Below, one piece after another: positions 1-8,608 of a stretch of DNA of 16,178 bases. The position numbers were made by a program, and so were the translations under genes. The notes under the pieces were generated by a model, which worked only from the letters and a program-made list of their open reading frames with translations, did no database searches and was not told where the DNA came from. Numbering within the stretch: position 1 is the first letter of the stretch; the number at the start of each line of letters is the position of its first letter. This DNA comes from a virus: the UHGV virus genome UHGV-1561483. One strand, given 5' to 3'.

Positions 1-78
1 ATGATTCAATATTATCACCCGATGTTTACTTATAATCTGGTGAACAACATTATTGATATTATTCAAAGGAGTATGTAA
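1..78 (+). CDS. 3' end of a hypothetical protein (gene starts upstream of window)
   Basis: Open frame from position 1 to TAA at 76-78; its stop overlaps the next ATG (TAATG), suggesting translational coupling. Only 25 codons visible. Confidence 0.3.
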   Translation: MIQYYHPMFTYNLVNNIIDIIQRSM

Positions 79-263
79 TGACAAGTGAGCAGGCTTTTAA
101 ATTAAGAGAATTAATTGAGATGTATAGTAAAGCTGTTCATACATCAACAGTTATTGATGAATCAGTTTTCTCTGGATATGCTAACAAGATTAAATACAAA
201 ACTCTTATGGAAGAAGCTAAAGTAAATCTTGATTCTTATATTGAAACTTTAATTGGTGAATAA
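78..263 (+). CDS. hypothetical small protein (61 aa)
   Basis: ATG at 78 preceded by AGGAG (67-71); compact same-strand operon context. Confidence 0.55.
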   Translation: MTSEQAFKLRELIEMYSKAVHTSTVIDESVFSGYANKIKYKTLMEEAKVNLDSYIETLIGE

Positions 264-264
264 C

Positions 265-531
265 ATGGGCTTTCCTAAATTAGAAGTAGGCGATTTAGTC
301 TTAACAAAATTGTGGAATGATGCTCAATCAGTAGAAATCTGTCAATATCGTGGAGCAACAGGTAACTTGATGTATACGATTTATAACCCAGAAATTTTGT
401 TAGAGTGTCATTTGGAACGCTTTATAAAAGACACCGATAGTATGCCTTATAGTGTATCGATTGTGCGTAAATCTGATACAAAGGAATACTCTAAAATTTT
501 AAAACAAATTCATGCCAATAAAAAGGATTAA
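265..531 (+). CDS. hypothetical protein (88 aa)
   Basis: ORF-track start at 253 is TTG inside the previous gene; first ATG at 265 chosen. Stop at 529-531 lies 1 nt before the next ATG. Confidence 0.5.
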   Translation: MGFPKLEVGDLVLTKLWNDAQSVEICQYRGATGNLMYTIYNPEILLECHLERFIKDTDSMPYSVSIVRKSDTKEYSKILKQIHANKKD

Positions 532-532
532 T

Positions 533-1075
533 ATGAAACGATTAGTATTAGAAGTTAGTCCGCTTTTTGGTGAATTGGCTATAGAAAAAGTAAATAACAT
601 GTATCGTTTGACGCAAGAAGACGATATGCTGTATTTTACGCCTAGTGAAATCATTCATTTAACCCAAATTGAATATCCTTATACTGATAAAATAGTAAGC
701 ATCAATGATGAGCACAAAATTCATTTTTATTCTTCATGCCCAGGATTTAATATTAAAAGTGAGTCAATGTGTTTATCAGTTATTCATTGGGATAGTTTTA
801 TAGCTAAGATTAAATATTTTTATTATTCTAATGAAAGAAAACATAGTTTAAAATGGTTTAAAAATTGCAATGCTATTATTACTAACGCTTGCGATCAGTG
901 TGGTCAGAATGATGAAACTGTTTTAAACGTATCAAAATGTTATGAAGAGGGAGATGTCTTAACTATTCGCCAAATTGACGATTTTCGATCACATATTGTC
1001 ACATTTACCAAAGACGAAGCTATTGCGCTAAAGACTTATCTTGATTCTGTCATTCCAACTATGATTTCAAAGTGA
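533..1075 (+). CDS. hypothetical protein, member A of a tandem paralog pair (180 aa)
   Basis: AAGGA (523-527) then ATG 533. C-terminus ...DEAIALKTYLDSVIPTMISK is shared with the next gene; several Cys pairs (CPG..., CDQCG) present. Confidence 0.6.
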   Translation: MKRLVLEVSPLFGELAIEKVNNMYRLTQEDDMLYFTPSEIIHLTQIEYPYTDKIVSINDEHKIHFYSSCPGFNIKSESMCLSVIHWDSFIAKIKYFYYSNERKHSLKWFKNCNAIITNACDQCGQNDETVLNVSKCYEEGDVLTIRQIDDFRSHIVTFTKDEAIALKTYLDSVIPTMISK

Positions 1076-1081
1076 GGAAAT

Positions 1082-1603
1082 ATGTTTATTTCAAGTGAAA
1101 GCGGTTTAATTCGTGTTGAATTTAAAAATGACATCTTTCTTATTCAAGGAGATGATATTATTAAAATGAGTTATGACGAAATCAAGAAAATTTGTAATGC
1201 TCTTGAAAATCATGGAAAGGTGAATGCTGTCATTGATATTGGCGATTTATGGGTGACACTTTATGAAGTATCCGAAGGATTTAACATTGAAGATGAAAAC
1301 AACATCTTAGCTATTGATAAAAGAAGCGATTTGTTTGATGTGTTAAAAGTTTATGAACAGTCAAACGGTGGAAGAAAAGCTGCATTGATTTATCAAAAAC
1401 CACATTCATGCGGAACTGCTTCAATCATTTCCAATATTGAAGGCGAAGTTGATACTTATATGTGTGTTTTAAAAGCTGGTGGTGACCGTCATCCGGATTT
1501 TATTTCTATTCGTCAAAACAATGGAGAAATTTCATTATCAAAATCAGAAGCTGAGGCTATGATTAAGTATTTAACAACCGTTACACCTTCAATGAAAGGA
1601 TAA
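1082..1603 (+). CDS. hypothetical protein, member B of a tandem paralog pair (173 aa)
   Basis: GAGGAAA (1074-1080) then ATG 1082. C-terminus ...SEAEAMIKYLTTVTPSMKG matches the C-terminus of the preceding gene. Confidence 0.65.
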   Translation: MFISSESGLIRVEFKNDIFLIQGDDIIKMSYDEIKKICNALENHGKVNAVIDIGDLWVTLYEVSEGFNIEDENNILAIDKRSDLFDVLKVYEQSNGGRKAALIYQKPHSCGTASIISNIEGEVDTYMCVLKAGGDRHPDFISIRQNNGEISLSKSEAEAMIKYLTTVTPSMKG

Positions 1604-1605
1604 TT

Positions 1606-2067
1606 ATGATTATTAATGAAAACTCTTGGCACTATAAATTATTCAAATTGTTTAACGATGAATGGCAACGACCTAAGACACTATGCGCATATTTTTGGTC
1701 TATTGCCATTCCTACATTTTTCGTTTCTATTTTTGGATGTGCTATACTCGTAGGGCTAACAATTATTTGTGCAGAAAGCCTACAACGTTGGCTTATTTTT
1801 GGTAGTTTATGGACTTTGCTTCCATCAGCATTTATACTTGCGATTTTGGTTGTTTTACTTATTATCGGTTCATTTGTTATTCCTGCACATTTGTGTGAAA
1901 AATATAAAGATTATAAATGGAAAAAGGATTATGCTTTACACGTAGAAAATATTGATAGGGCGTATAAAGGTTTACCTCCTATTCAACCCAAGAAATCGAT
2001 TATCGTTGAATTTTTAAAAGCTCGTAAAGCTAAAGTATGTCCTGTTATTGAATATAAGGCTGAATGA
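1606..2067 (+). CDS. predicted small membrane protein (153 aa, 2-3 hydrophobic helices)
   Basis: AAAGGA (1594-1599) then ATG 1606; long hydrophobic stretches (FWSIAIPTFFVSIFGCAILVGLTIICA, LLPSAFILAILVVLLIIGSFVIP). Confidence 0.6.
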   Translation: MIINENSWHYKLFKLFNDEWQRPKTLCAYFWSIAIPTFFVSIFGCAILVGLTIICAESLQRWLIFGSLWTLLPSAFILAILVVLLIIGSFVIPAHLCEKYKDYKWKKDYALHVENIDRAYKGLPPIQPKKSIIVEFLKARKAKVCPVIEYKAE

Positions 2068-3077
2068 TGAAAACAGTAATGAAAAGCTATTTTGGTAGTC
2101 ATCTTTATGGAACTTCTACCCCAGAATCTGATGTAGATTTTAAAGAAATCTTTGTTCCTCCTGCTCGCGATATTCTTATCGGAAATGTCAAAGAGCATAT
2201 GAGTAAAAACACTAACAACACATCATCTAAAAACACTAAAGATGATATTGACCATGAACTATACAGTCTTAAGTATTTCTTTAAATTAGCAGCAGATGGT
2301 GAAACCGTAGCATTGGATATGCTCCACACTCCACCTGAGCTAGTGGTTAAATCTGATTTACCTGATGTATGGAAATTTATCCAAGACAATCGTTCACGGT
2401 TTTATACAACTAACATGAAATCCTATTTAGGATATGTCCGCAAGCAAGCTTCTAAATACGGTGTCAAGGGTTCTCGTTTGGCCGCATTACGTGATGTATT
2501 GAAAGTAGTTAATCAAATCCCTGAGCAGTGGGTTGATTATCAAGAAGGAATTCCAGATCGTCTCCGACGTACGAAGGTAGAAGATATTAAACATCGTCTT
2601 CCAGAAAACGAGTTCTGTGAATGGGTGTTCCATAATCATGAGAAAACAGGCCCGCAAACGTTCTATACTGTGTTGGGTCGTAAATATCAGACAACGCTTT
2701 CTCTTATTGAGCTTAAGCAGTCTTTGAATAAACTTGATGCTGAATACGGCGAACGTGCTCGTAAAGCTGAAGCGAATGAGGGTATTGACTGGAAAGCTCT
2801 GAGTCATGCTTGTCGTGGTGGACTCCAATTGTTGGAAATTTACAAAACTGGTGACTTAGTTTATCCACTCCAAGATGCTCCATTTATTCTCGACGTGAAG
2901 CTGGGTAAGCATCCATTTAAAACAGTTCAAGAGTTTTTGGAAGATGTGGTCGATCAAGTAGAAGCAGCATCAATTGAAGCTTCTAAGAACGGTATGCAAC
3001 AAAAAGTAGACATGGGTTTCTGGGATGACTTCCTTGAGAGGGTGTATCTCGAAAACCATCGAAGTTATTATAAATGA
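2064..3077 (+). CDS. nucleotidyltransferase-fold protein (337 aa)
   Basis: N-terminal motif GSHLYGTSTPESDVDF (G-S-x10-D-x-D, nt about 2094-2141) typical of pol-beta-type/minimal nucleotidyltransferases, with a downstream acidic ALDMLH that could supply the third carboxylate. ATGATG start overlaps the upstream stop; followed by an intrinsic terminator. Confidence 0.6.
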   Translation: MMKTVMKSYFGSHLYGTSTPESDVDFKEIFVPPARDILIGNVKEHMSKNTNNTSSKNTKDDIDHELYSLKYFFKLAADGETVALDMLHTPPELVVKSDLPDVWKFIQDNRSRFYTTNMKSYLGYVRKQASKYGVKGSRLAALRDVLKVVNQIPEQWVDYQEGIPDRLRRTKVEDIKHRLPENEFCEWVFHNHEKTGPQTFYTVLGRKYQTTLSLIELKQSLNKLDAEYGERARKAEANEGIDWKALSHACRGGLQLLEIYKTGDLVYPLQDAPFILDVKLGKHPFKTVQEFLEDVVDQVEAASIEASKNGMQQKVDMGFWDDFLERVYLENHRSYYK

Positions 3078-3079
3078 TA

Positions 3080-3106
3080 GGGAGCCTTCGGGCTCCCTTT
3101 TTTTAT
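3080..3106 (+). terminator. Rho-independent terminator (GGGAGCC-TTCG-GGCTCCC + T7)
   Basis: Perfect 7-bp GC-rich stem with a UUCG tetraloop (3080-3097) followed directly by TTTTTTT (3098-3104). Confidence 0.85.
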
Positions 3107-3129
3107 TTCAAAAATTTTTTCACAAAACG

Positions 3130-3159
3130 GTTTACAAGCATAAAGCTTTATGGTACTAT
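3130..3159 (+). promoter_or_regulatory. T4-early-type sigma70 promoter (GTTTAC -35, 18-bp spacer, TGG-TACTAT -10)
   Basis: GTTTAC at 3130-3135, TACTAT at 3154-3159, A/T-rich upstream; same architecture as the 4568 and 15390 promoters. Confidence 0.65.
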
Positions 3160-3172
3160 ACAACTATCAACT
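3151..3172 (+). repeat. 22-bp exact direct repeat, copy 1 (TGGTACTATACAACTATCAACT)
   Basis: Identical 22-mer recurs at 4589-4610; covers the -10 and the start of the 5' UTR of two promoters. Confidence 0.9.
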
Positions 3173-3193
3173 GATACGGATTTGGAGAATAAA

Positions 3194-4162
3194 ATGAAAA
3201 CTGTAACTATCAATAAGGGTATCTACTTCGGTAAAGAAATCTCTGGAACTTTTGAGCTCTTAGGCGAATGGTTCCCAGATAATGCTCCGGTAGATGCACA
3301 AGGAGATGGTAAAGTTTTTGTTGAAATTGACGGTAAACGTCGCGGTGTTTGGGTTTACAAATCAGATATTTCATATGATGGTGTAAAAGTTGAAGAAGTT
3401 AAAGAATCGTATGAAGATATGAAAACCCGCATTAATAAAAGATTTAATGTTATGGGAATGATGACGAATGGTATTATTAATGGAAATATTCGTTCATTAA
3501 TTATCTCTGGCGCAGCAGGTATTGGTAAAACGTATTCTTTAGATAAAGCTTTAAATAAAGCAAATGATATTGGATACATTGAATATAAAAGCATTAATGG
3601 TAAAATCTCTGGTATTGGTCTTTATGAGCAGCTTTGGAATAATCGTGAAGAGAATTCTGTCCTTTTGATTGATGATGTGGATGTTTTCTCTGATATGGAC
3701 ATTCTTAATCTTCTAAAAGCTGCTCTGGACACTGGAGAGACCCGTAAAGTCTGCTGGAGCACTGCGTCTTCTTACTTAGAAGAAAAAGGCATTGAGCGTG
3801 AGTTTGAATTTAAAGGAACGATTGTTTTTATCACAAACGTTGACATTGACCGTGAATTAGACCGTGGTACTAAACTTGCTCCACACTTACAAGCATTAGT
3901 GTCCCGCTCGGTTTATTTAGATTTGGGCGTTCACACTAATGAAGAAATTATGGTCAGGGTTGAAGATGTTATTCTTTCAACTGACATGATGCAAAAGCGC
4001 GGTCTTTCTGATGAAGAAACTTATAAAGCATTATCATGGATGAAAGTTAATGTTAATCGTTTACGCAATGTTTCACTGCGTACTGCTCTTTATCTTGCTG
4101 ACTTTATTATGACCGACAAAAACGGTTGGGAAGAAATTGCTGAGGTTACTCTTCTGAAATAA
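3194..4162 (+). CDS. AAA+ ATPase-domain protein (322 aa)
   Basis: Walker A GAAGIGKT (nt 3509-3532), Walker B VLLIDDVDV (about 3661-3687), candidate sensor-1 IVFITN. ORF-track start at 3074 runs through the terminator and promoter, so the start was moved to ATG 3194 after GGAG. Confidence 0.7.
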   Translation: MKTVTINKGIYFGKEISGTFELLGEWFPDNAPVDAQGDGKVFVEIDGKRRGVWVYKSDISYDGVKVEEVKESYEDMKTRINKRFNVMGMMTNGIINGNIRSLIISGAAGIGKTYSLDKALNKANDIGYIEYKSINGKISGIGLYEQLWNNREENSVLLIDDVDVFSDMDILNLLKAALDTGETRKVCWSTASSYLEEKGIEREFEFKGTIVFITNVDIDRELDRGTKLAPHLQALVSRSVYLDLGVHTNEEIMVRVEDVILSTDMMQKRGLSDEETYKALSWMKVNVNRLRNVSLRTALYLADFIMTDKNGWEEIAEVTLLK

Positions 4163-4259
4163 TTCATAAGAGGACTTCTATGACAAAAGGCAGTTCAGAA
4201 ATAGATTATATGGACTGCCATTAAAAAGATGACTAGAATTAAACTGGTGAATGGAGGTA

Positions 4260-6520: not shown

Positions 6521-7549
6521 ATGAAAACTCGTTCTCAAATTGAAGATATGGTTCGTAATGCCAGCTATACCCGTAATGTTATGACATTTTTGTGTGAAAA
6601 TAATTTAGACCCTGATAAAGTTAATCGTGTTATTCATCACTTTAAGTATACGAATAGCAGTGAATGGGTGCGTAATTTTAGTAAAGCGGGGTATATTACA
6701 CAAATGACTGCTCGTGAGCAGCTCACCGATTTCTGTAAAACTATTGATTATAAAAATCCTCTATTTGTTCAAGGCGTTGGTCAGAGTAAGGTCGATTTAT
6801 CAACAGGATTTTTTAATCCAAATCATTATCGTCTTGAATGGAGATTTATTGCTCTATTCCGTAAACAATTAAAGCAAATTTTGTCGACGGCTAGTCGATT
6901 AAAAGGTTCTGATATTAACTTAAAGAATCTGAAATTTGATGGTTATACTCTTCAGATGGAAGTAAGACCATTAAAAGAAAATAACAGAACTGCACGAATT
7001 AGCTTTAAGCCTAATACTAAAAATTCTCTTTCAATTTGTGAATGCCTTAAATCACAGTTGACAGAAGCATTTAAGTATATGGATGTTGTTGCTGCTGTTC
7101 AGTCTAAGATTTTACCTCGTTTTGAGCGAAATTGGGAACATACAACAACGTATGAACTTGATATGATCGTTTCATTTAAATATGAATTTTTGAGAAAGGA
7201 CGAAGTTACACAAGAGAAAAAGCAAGAAGTGCAAGATAACTTAAATTTAAATTTATCCAATTACTCATCAAACGATCCTAAATTTTGGATGTATAGTTCA
7301 GGTAATAAGGATGCATGGAAATTCAATAAAGTGAATTTTCTTCCTGTTGAAAATCCGAGTCTTAAACCTGTTGAAAAATGGCATGCAGATGCGATTGAGA
7401 AGTCTATCAAGGCAGTAGATGATGAACTCGTTAAAGCAACTAATGAAGTGCTAGAAGCTGAAAAGATGCTAGAAAAAGCTCAAGAAAAAGTCAAAAATCT
7501 CACGAAGCAACGTTCTAAACTGAACAATGCACTAAATGCACTGAACTAG
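6521..7549 (+). CDS. hypothetical protein, paralog family member 2 (342 aa)
   Basis: AAGGA (6511-6515) then ATG 6521. N-terminus MKTR..., internal motif LFRKQLKQILSTASRLKGSD, linker PVENPSLKPVEK, heptad-like C-terminal helix. Confidence 0.7.
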   Translation: MKTRSQIEDMVRNASYTRNVMTFLCENNLDPDKVNRVIHHFKYTNSSEWVRNFSKAGYITQMTAREQLTDFCKTIDYKNPLFVQGVGQSKVDLSTGFFNPNHYRLEWRFIALFRKQLKQILSTASRLKGSDINLKNLKFDGYTLQMEVRPLKENNRTARISFKPNTKNSLSICECLKSQLTEAFKYMDVVAAVQSKILPRFERNWEHTTTYELDMIVSFKYEFLRKDEVTQEKKQEVQDNLNLNLSNYSSNDPKFWMYSSGNKDAWKFNKVNFLPVENPSLKPVEKWHADAIEKSIKAVDDELVKATNEVLEAEKMLEKAQEKVKNLTKQRSKLNNALNALN

Positions 7550-7578
7550 TTTACTTTACCACAGGGATGTGGTATAAT
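7549..7578 (+). promoter_or_regulatory. candidate promoter (GTTTAC -35, 18-bp spacer, TGGTATAAT extended -10), overlapped by an inverted repeat
   Basis: GTTTAC 7549-7554, TATAAT 7573-7578; inverted repeat ACCACA-GGGA-TGTGGT at 7558-7573. Confidence 0.55.
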
Positions 7579-7606
7579 GTTCTTACTTTCTACTGAGGAG
7601 ATTAAT

Positions 7607-8608
7607 ATGACTCGTAACGAATATATCAAATCATTCAATAGCGTTATTGATGATAAAGCTATACCGATGTTTGGCCAAAATAGCGTTCTTTCTATTATCA
7701 ATCAATGGCTCAATAGTGTTGATGCAAGTATTGTTTCTTCTACTAAATTTATTCATGAAATTCGTAAAATTTCTAGCCGTGTAGATAAAGATGTTATCAA
7801 GAAAACCTTTAAAGAGTCTCGTCTTCTTTCATATTTGGTTAATCGGGATATTCTTGGTAATTTTGGGAAAGAAATTAAACGAACCAAAGATGTAGTAGGA
7901 TATAATTGGTTCGGTGATGTTAATTCTTATCATCTTAATAATAAAGAAGACCCTGAGAATATTTTTACTCGTCGTTGGATTAGTAATTTCAGACTTTTCA
8001 AAGGACAGATTCTAAAATCAGCTTCTAAATTATGTTATGGCGATTATCGTCAAATTCATCCTTTGGCTTCTGATATGATTATCATAAAAGAATATGAACT
8101 TGATAAAAATAAAGTATCTATTTTTGTGAATTATGGATTTTTTACACCAGAAACTAACCAAAAGAATATTAATAAATTTTTCTCAATTGCTAGCACTATA
8201 ACTCGTCAATTAGAGACCGCATTACTTTGTATGGAAACAGTAGAAAATATTCATACATATCCTTTTAAGAATATATGCGGATGGGAAGGATATAAAATTG
8301 TAATTAGTCTTCGTGAAGTGAAATGTGCTTATTCACCTACTGATAAAGAAATTTATCAACAAAAATGTGAGGAAATTGTGAATACTCCTAAAGAAGAAAC
8401 TACCCTTGAGGAACTAATGGATAATCTTGATGATTCGCCTGAACCGGTAGAAATTCGTCCAGAAGTTATTGCACTAGAAAAAGCTTATAAAGAAGTTCTA
8501 GAAATTTCTAATAAAGCACAGAAAGAATATGAGCAGGCTAAAAGGATTTGGGAAGAATCTGTTAATCGTCTTGATCGTCTGGAACAAGCTTTACAGTTAA
8601 TTAAGTAA
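7607..8608 (+). CDS. hypothetical protein, paralog family member 3 (333 aa)
   Basis: ORF-track start 7577 sits inside the TATAAT; ATG 7607 follows GAGGAG (7596-7601). N-terminus MTRNEYIKSFNS resembles member 4; internal motif LFKGQILKSASKLCYGD; linker SPEPVEIRPEV; C-terminal coiled coil. Confidence 0.7.
   Translation: MTRNEYIKSFNSVIDDKAIPMFGQNSVLSIINQWLNSVDASIVSSTKFIHEIRKISSRVDKDVIKKTFKESRLLSYLVNRDILGNFGKEIKRTKDVVGYNWFGDVNSYHLNNKEDPENIFTRRWISNFRLFKGQILKSASKLCYGDYRQIHPLASDMIIIKEYELDKNKVSIFVNYGFFTPETNQKNINKFFSIASTITRQLETALLCMETVENIHTYPFKNICGWEGYKIVISLREVKCAYSPTDKEIYQQKCEEIVNTPKEETTLEELMDNLDDSPEPVEIRPEVIALEKAYKEVLEISNKAQKEYEQAKRIWEESVNRLDRLEQALQLIK

Follow-up and report, generated by a model that had tools for sequence, protein, structure and literature searches.

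A tandem pair of MobD.1 (y05I) family genes in a T4-like phage locus and its predicted Pur-alpha/Whirly-like fold

Phage T4 encodes a single member of the MobD.1 family (NP_049711; UniProt Y05I_BPT4; Pfam 'y05I-like putative transcription factor'), which consists of the domains T4_y05I_N and T4_y05I_C. A second gene of the family, RB32ORF097c or RB51ORF104, lies downstream of mobD.1 in RB32, RB14, RB51, AR1, T6 and others, and is annotated as 'similar to mobD.1' in the RB51 record. No experimental function or functional study of MobD.1 was found in the literature searched, in which a single paper names it, and then only as a boundary of the mobD insertion site. Here, we describe two adjacent genes, A and B, at positions 533-1603 of a 16,178-nucleotide stretch of the virus genome UHGV-1561483 (hereafter the window). 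Comparison of their sequences identifies A as the ortholog of T4 MobD.1 and B as its paralog, both within the catalogued MobD.1 (y05I) family. The pair is already known, being annotated in hundreds of T4-like genomes and covered by Pfam entries, and is an ordinary, widely shared feature. The explanation towards which we lean is that A and B are anciently diverged paralogs with a three-unit fold, which would act as dimeric PC4-like accessory proteins that bind nucleic acid or a partner.

Family membership and full-length homology of A and B

A is 86% identical to T4 MobD.1 and occupies the same position between mobD.2-type genes and nrdC.11, with matching flanking genes. B is the same gene as RB32ORF097c, with 94-98% identity, the same position and no substantive difference; the window copy is one more allele. 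The gene occurs in about 434 phage records at an identity of at least 80%, 432 of these at 90% or more. T4 has one family copy, whereas the window has two, and both B and the membrane-protein gene that follows it are absent from T4. Most related phages likewise carry only one gene of the family. T4_y05I_N (PF24449) and T4_y05I_C (PF24448), with gathering cut-offs of 24.9 and 27, respectively, are both detected over the full length of each protein, with scores of 133.4 bits (E = 5e-39) and 80.4 bits (E = 1e-22) in A and 117.2 bits (E = 5.5e-34) and 81.4 bits (E = 6e-23) in B. Both proteins also match phrog_1502 (E = 8e-81 for A and 2e-66 for B), and neither has a match in NCBIfam. When 1.84 billion cluster representatives were searched exhaustively with a family profile, 29 proteins matched at E ≤ 0.001, one of which (P0070, 1572 residues) was rejected as a repetitive-protein artefact. 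The MobD.1 family is small and restricted to T4-like phages.

BLASTP aligns A and B with 26% identity over 179 columns (E = 8e-8), and their Smith-Waterman score is 87, compared with 30.3 ± 5.1 for shuffled sequences (z = 11). When the proteins are compared by part, z is 7.2 for the N-domains, 6.8 for the C-domains, 8.3 for the last 25 residues and 6.9 for the proteins without these 25 residues, and none of the 2000 composition-preserving shuffles reached the observed score in any test. Because every part gives such a score, the similarity is neither an effect of AT-rich composition nor confined to the C-terminus, and the alignments indicate that it spans the full length. A preliminary description of this DNA had recognised two adjacent genes as tandem paralogs with a conserved C-terminal signature. 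The open reading frames (ORFs), which share one orientation, BLASTP and Pfam bear this out, and the C-terminal peptides quoted there are present and belong to the most conserved element of the whole family. The accompanying statement that the rest of the two proteins has diverged is contradicted by the N-domain scores and by the same two Pfam domains throughout. The description had also allowed that the C-terminal similarity might not exceed the background expected of AT-rich coding sequence. Beyond the low G+C content (30-32%) nothing speaks for such a chance or compositional effect, and the scores of the last 25 residues and of the full-length proteins speak against it, as does the retention of the same motif in 41 of 41 aligned family members, stand-alone C-domain proteins included. 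The shuffle tests lead us to reject it, and we regard its probability as negligible.

Predicted fold and the C-terminal signature

The PC4-like fold occurs as type I domains, in which two repeats lie in one chain, and as type II domains, which are formed by two single-repeat chains; Pur-alpha is the sole reported protein with both, and the superfamily has no sequence conservation according to a 2020 review (PMC7549692). The AlphaFold2 models of A and B both have the order four strands and a helix, four strands and a helix, and four to five strands and a helix. DSSP assignment of the models places the first two repeats at residues 3-45 and 53-100 of A and at residues 2-43 and 49-95 of B. The model of B, built from a 41-sequence alignment, has a mean predicted local distance difference test score (pLDDT) of 88, and in the model of A the pLDDT exceeds 90 over residues 1-100. 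Significant three-dimensional similarity to bona fide PC4-like, Whirly and PUR members is seen, and the N-domain of A and B is predicted to be a PC4-like type I domain with the Pur-alpha/Whirly fold. A fold search of BFVD returned family members only.

The C-domain of the B model contains strands at residues 101-104, 113-116, 125-130, 140-145 and 148-152, followed by a helix at residues 154-170. The most conserved columns of the family form the consensus F-T-K-x-E-A-x-A-L-V-x-Y-L-N-S-V-I-P-T-M, and we infer from the models that this C-terminal signature is the terminal helix of the third unit. The C-domain appears to be one additional unit, judging from the order of secondary structure elements, a profile match between repeat I and the C-domain (repeat III), and C-domain homologs that exist as stand-alone proteins of 69-87 residues at the same locus. 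The profile match aligns the L-x-Q-E-D-D motif and following helix with the I-R-Q-x-D-D motif and following helix.

Several observations weigh against this structural assignment. The C-domain of A is modelled with a pLDDT of only about 50, a low-confidence value, and the match between repeat I and repeat III is weak, with an hhalign E-value of 6e-4 but a probability of 12%. The PurA, Whirly and PC4 Pfam profiles match none of the 41 family members at E ≤ 1, and no sequence relative is found among the solved structures of the PDB. The closest known systems also differ in part. Pur-alpha (PURA, PDB 3k44 and 5fgo) has no detectable sequence homology to A and B, which are acidic, and the third unit of B is predicted to be five-stranded. 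The Whirly proteins (PBF-2 p24 and StWhy2) and trypanosome MRP1/MRP2 are basic and tetrameric and lack a third repeat. PC4-like single-repeat dimers (human PC4, the phage T5 PC4 homolog 4bg7, Borrelia Pur-alpha and YdbC) also belong among the closest known systems.

A small gene of 67-72 residues, DUF7189, lies just upstream of the y05I gene in one related contig (L023 3772-3990) and about 1.3 kb upstream of a stand-alone C-domain gene in another (L021 1172-1375). Repeat I is matched by DUF7189 below threshold in 16 of 41 family members, at best with E = 3e-5, and hhalign gives an E-value of 0.003 over an i-x-i-x-Q-x-D motif and following helix. DUF7189 is possibly a further single repeat of this fold that occurs on its own.

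Age of the pair, selection and recombination

In the preliminary description the pair was taken for an in-situ duplication, in which the C-termini alone had stayed alike, of a small effector-like protein that is subject to diversifying selection and has Cys pairs that might bind metal. The tandem arrangement in an accessory region, the six Cys residues of A, one CxxC motif included, and the very divergent A alleles between genomes that are otherwise about 97% identical are in favour of such a reading, with the duplication taken as recent. The full-length homology is against it, and so are the phylogeny, the selection estimates and the origin of the CxxC motif set out below, which together make it very improbable.

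At the DNA level, A and B share a single 21-nucleotide in-register match over the GFNI motif and almost no other similarity. In neighbour-joining trees built on the N-domain, A clusters with another allele class, about 45% identical, and with Dhakavirus MobD.1, and B stays outside this clade (bootstrap 99 and 81); the same clade includes the single-copy MobD.1 genes of Mosigvirus-like phages, and B-type sequences form a clade of their own (bootstrap 100). In one contig, whose nrdC.10 is 98% identical to that of the window, a B-type gene with 57% identity to B is the sole family member at the locus. In Mosigvirus-like phages and in Dhakavirus, the family is represented by one A-like gene. Because B falls outside the A clade and both B-type-only and A-like-only loci exist, the split between A and B predates these lineages. 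A recent duplication and gene conversion are rejected on the short DNA remnant and the position of B outside the A clade. The tandem arrangement may have arisen by an ancient duplication followed by losses, or by recombination that juxtaposed alternative alleles.

The mean pairwise ratio of nonsynonymous to synonymous substitution rates (dN/dS), estimated gene-wide by the NG86 method from ten Tequatrovirus orthologs per gene, is 0.20 for A, 0.175 for B, 0.15 for the membrane-protein gene and 0.06 for nrdC.11. Selection on A and B is purifying and somewhat relaxed, and no gene-wide positive selection is seen (dN/dS 0.18-0.20), contrary to the diversifying selection proposed earlier. The near-absence of DNA similarity between A and B and a dN/dS of about 0.2 favour protein-level constraint on the helix, and not gene conversion, as the source of the conserved signature; among A alleles, a recombination breakpoint inside the C-domain would contribute as well. 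In B orthologs, the synonymous rate (dS) is about four times lower in the C-domain (0.07; positions 1370-1600) than in the N-domain (0.28; positions 1082-1369), which hints at a recent recombinational sweep or a mosaic boundary inside B.

Exchange of DNA segments is seen directly in related genomes. Phage e11/2 is about 97% identical to the window on both sides of a cassette, corresponding to window positions from about 255 to about 960, that is only about 50% identical; this cassette lacks the 'phage tudor' gene, contains a divergent A and has its right-hand breakpoint inside the C-domain of A. The near-identical C-terminus of A-type alleles follows from the position of such a breakpoint. The 'phage tudor' gene (PF24144) belongs to the swapped cassette: the window, T6 and ECO4 have it, and T4, RB51, UFV11 and e11/2 do not. 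A natural chimera, in which nucleotides 1-388 of A are joined at a GAA-N-T-TG microhomology to B from nucleotide 369, forms one gene for a protein of 179 residues; it recurs across several sequencing runs and is also carried by Shigella phage SP21535. The C-domains of A and B are therefore structurally interchangeable. The variability of the locus comes from recombination and cassette replacement.

The Cys pairs of A had been put forward as a possible metal site. The motif CDQCGQ is encoded by an imperfect 9-bp tandem duplication, TGCGATCAG TGTGGTCAG, which is a perfect repeat encoding CDQCDQ in T6 and in one IMG/VR contig (L006). The 9-bp insertion is missing from T4, RB51 and ESh28 and from 20 of 21 A-type cluster representatives, the exception being the chimera P0020 (CDQCDQ), and no Cys column of the family alignments is invariant or nearly so. 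With no conserved Cys column and a CxxC that is confined to a subclade, the family as a whole can have no conserved metal site. Assignment to the zinc-ribbon or CxxC-pair class, which has two or more conserved Cys/His pairs, is likewise rejected, and the alignments mark the Cys motif of A as incidental.

Possible function, linked genes and organisation of the locus

In the arrangement proposed here, A and B would each comprise three beta-beta-beta-beta-alpha units, of which units I and II would pack as an N-terminal Pur-alpha/Whirly-like (PC4-like type I) domain. The C-domain would be a third single unit. Like Pur-alpha repeat III and PC4, this half-domain would most likely find its partner in another copy of itself, giving dimers. 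A self-sufficient C-domain monomer is unlikely, judging from the stand-alone proteins. Since most related phages have one gene of the family, a homodimer is likely to be ancestral. Judged by the fold alone, A and B would bind single-stranded nucleic acid or a partner resembling it, possibly in conjunction with the membrane protein and the RlaP nucleotidyltransferase to which they are invariably linked.

The charge of the proteins speaks against nucleic-acid binding. The isoelectric point is 5.5 for A, 4.8 for B, 4.3 for the N-domain of B and between 4.2 and 4.6 in distant homologs; the motifs conserved in the N-domain are acidic or polar, and no conserved basic or aromatic sheet residues that would fit binding of single-stranded DNA or RNA are recognised in the family alignment. 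Because of this acidic character, and because some proteins of the same fold bind proteins, nucleic-acid binding is predicted with only a moderate lead over a role in protein binding or mimicry. It is possible, with less probability than the explanation favoured above, that the family and fold are as described but the proteins do not bind nucleic acid. They would instead be acidic and bind proteins as modulators, or mimic nucleic acid, and act on a host factor such as a defence protein or a nucleic-acid-binding protein; target specificity would in that case differ between the paralogs and among the divergent A alleles. However, the best structural matches are nucleic-acid binders, dN/dS is about 0.2 with no gene-level arms-race signature, and no anti-defence link was found in the literature. 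A more specific proposal extends the analogy with Pur-alpha and MRP1/MRP2. An architecture in which a dimerising half-domain comes after an intramolecular PC4-like domain is known, according to the 2020 review, from eukaryotic Pur-alpha alone, and the MobD.1 family would be its first case in viruses or prokaryotes. In Tequatroviruses, A and B would form a heterodimer through their conserved C-terminal units, in the manner of MRP1/MRP2, that binds single-stranded RNA or DNA and works with the membrane protein and NrdC.11. We consider this combination improbable.

The order of a y05I family member (two-domain or C-domain only), a membrane protein and an RlaP nucleotidyltransferase is found in Tequatrovirus, Mosigvirus-like contigs, Dhakavirus, Tegunavirus fHe-Yen9-01 and unclassified contigs; in two cases (fHe-Yen9-01 and contig L021), the membrane-protein gene and RlaP are separated by one or two extra ORFs. 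This linkage is a robust contextual clue that points to a functional module. In T4, the HNH homing-endonuclease gene mobD (L003 6430-7209) lies exactly where the window has B and the membrane-protein gene (positions 1082-2067) (PMC2988022), suggesting that endonuclease invasion displaced about 1 kb of a resident cassette. The nrdC.11-mobD.3 block can be deleted in genome-reduced T4 (PMC9825161), and disrupted copies of the genes exist; both fit an accessory role. A and B are both split by frameshifts in the ECO4 record (L001 2033-3094), and A is in three pieces in T2 (AP018813 54402-54929) and in two in RB14 (NC_012638 53853-54382). The splits reflect either the decay of a dispensable gene into pseudogenes or errors in sequencing.

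Positions 1-4200 of the window match more than 400 Tequatrovirus genomes over the whole length at 95-96% DNA identity, and comparison with annotated relatives identifies the locus as the rI-mobD.x-nrdC.11-nrdC.10 region of a Tequatrovirus. The G+C content of the window is 30-38%, and all its long ORFs are on the + strand, which is the direction of transcription according to the same relatives. The features are collected in Table 1. The ATG of A begins one base after the stop codon of the upstream 'phage tudor' gene and is preceded by a Shine-Dalgarno sequence, AAGGA (523-527); another candidate start, the ATG at 512, falls within the upstream gene. The Shine-Dalgarno sequence of B, GAGGA (1074-1078), overlaps the stop codon of A. 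A, B, the membrane-protein gene and nrdC.11 overlap or are spaced by 0-6 nucleotides. Promoter scans gave nothing above shuffle expectation within the A/B pair or between the four genes, the late-promoter sequence TATAAATA is absent from the window, and no MotA-box-like site lies close to the pair. In the explanation that we favour, A and B would be co-transcribed in a non-essential mobD.x-nrdC.11 unit.

Table 1. Coordinates of the A/B genes, their domains and neighbouring features in the window
Feature	Positions	Strand	Basis
Gene A, ortholog of T4 mobD.1 (y05I), 180 residues	533-1075	+	ORF, identity to NP_049711, Pfam, phrog_1502
A N-terminal domain, residues 1-100, two predicted beta-beta-beta-beta-alpha repeats, PUR/Whirly-like (PC4-like type I)	533-832	+	
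A C-terminal domain, residues 101-180, T4_y05I_C, predicted strands then terminal helix	833-1072	+	Pfam; low-confidence model
Imperfect 9-bp tandem duplication in A	890-907	+	Sequence
A predicted C-terminal helix, residues 160-176, signature TKDEAIALKTYLDSVIPTM	1010-1060	+	DSSP of model; most conserved columns of family
Gene B, MobD.1 paralog 'RB32ORF097c', 173 residues	1082-1603	+	ORF, Pfam, RB51 annotation
B N-terminal domain, residues 1-96, two predicted beta-beta-beta-beta-alpha repeats	1082-1369	+	
B C-terminal domain, residues 97-173, predicted third unit, five strands and helix	1370-1600	+	AlphaFold2, pLDDT 74-95
B predicted C-terminal helix, signature SKSEAEAMIKYLTTVTP	1541-1591	+	AlphaFold2 model, family alignment
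Upstream 'phage tudor' gene, in cassette variable between phages	253-531	+	Pfam PF24144
Membrane-protein gene (RB32ORF096c-like), conserved neighbour 3' of B	1606-2067	+	phrog_944
nrdC.11, RlaP-family nucleotidyltransferase, last gene of unit	2064-3077	+	Pfam PF10127; 96% identity to T4 nrdC.11
Strong intrinsic terminator-like hairpin and T-run closing the transcription unit	3079-3098	+	Terminator annotated at same place in phage e11/2

Other parts of the window also contain features of note. The longest ORF of nrdC.10 (3074-4162) starts at 3074 and includes the hairpin at 3079-3098; the start annotated in relatives corresponds to about 3191, and the first approximately 39 codons of the mechanical ORF are probably untranslated. 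The small gene at 78-263 is a member of DUF7438 in Pfam and has the PHROG label 'helicase loader', and related genomes have four to five DUF7438 genes (mobD.2a, mobD.3, mobD.4 and others) in a tandem array just upstream (e.g. L010 1818-2731), an array larger than the A/B pair. The genes at 6521-7549 (342 residues, Pfam DUF7235) and 7577-8608 (343 residues) resemble a pair by size but have no BLASTP similarity (E = 2.2).

As a discovery, the pair means little, since it occurs in hundreds of T4-like genomes and its family is already in Pfam. What the analysis adds consists of predictions: a Pur-alpha-like three-repeat fold, the signature as a helix of a probable dimerisation half-domain, and the linkage to the membrane protein and RlaP. 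The Pfam label 'putative transcription factor' is now tied to a concrete predicted fold, PUR/Whirly with a third half-repeat, and this fold gives hypotheses, namely dimerisation and binding of single-stranded DNA or RNA, for an uncharacterised, dispensable T4 gene. The locus is a clean example of accessory-region variation by cassette replacement, paralog juxtaposition, paralog fusion and homing-endonuclease displacement, and not by point-mutational diversifying selection. The linkage of y05I or its C-domain to the membrane protein and RlaP across several genera makes the three genes a candidate functional module.
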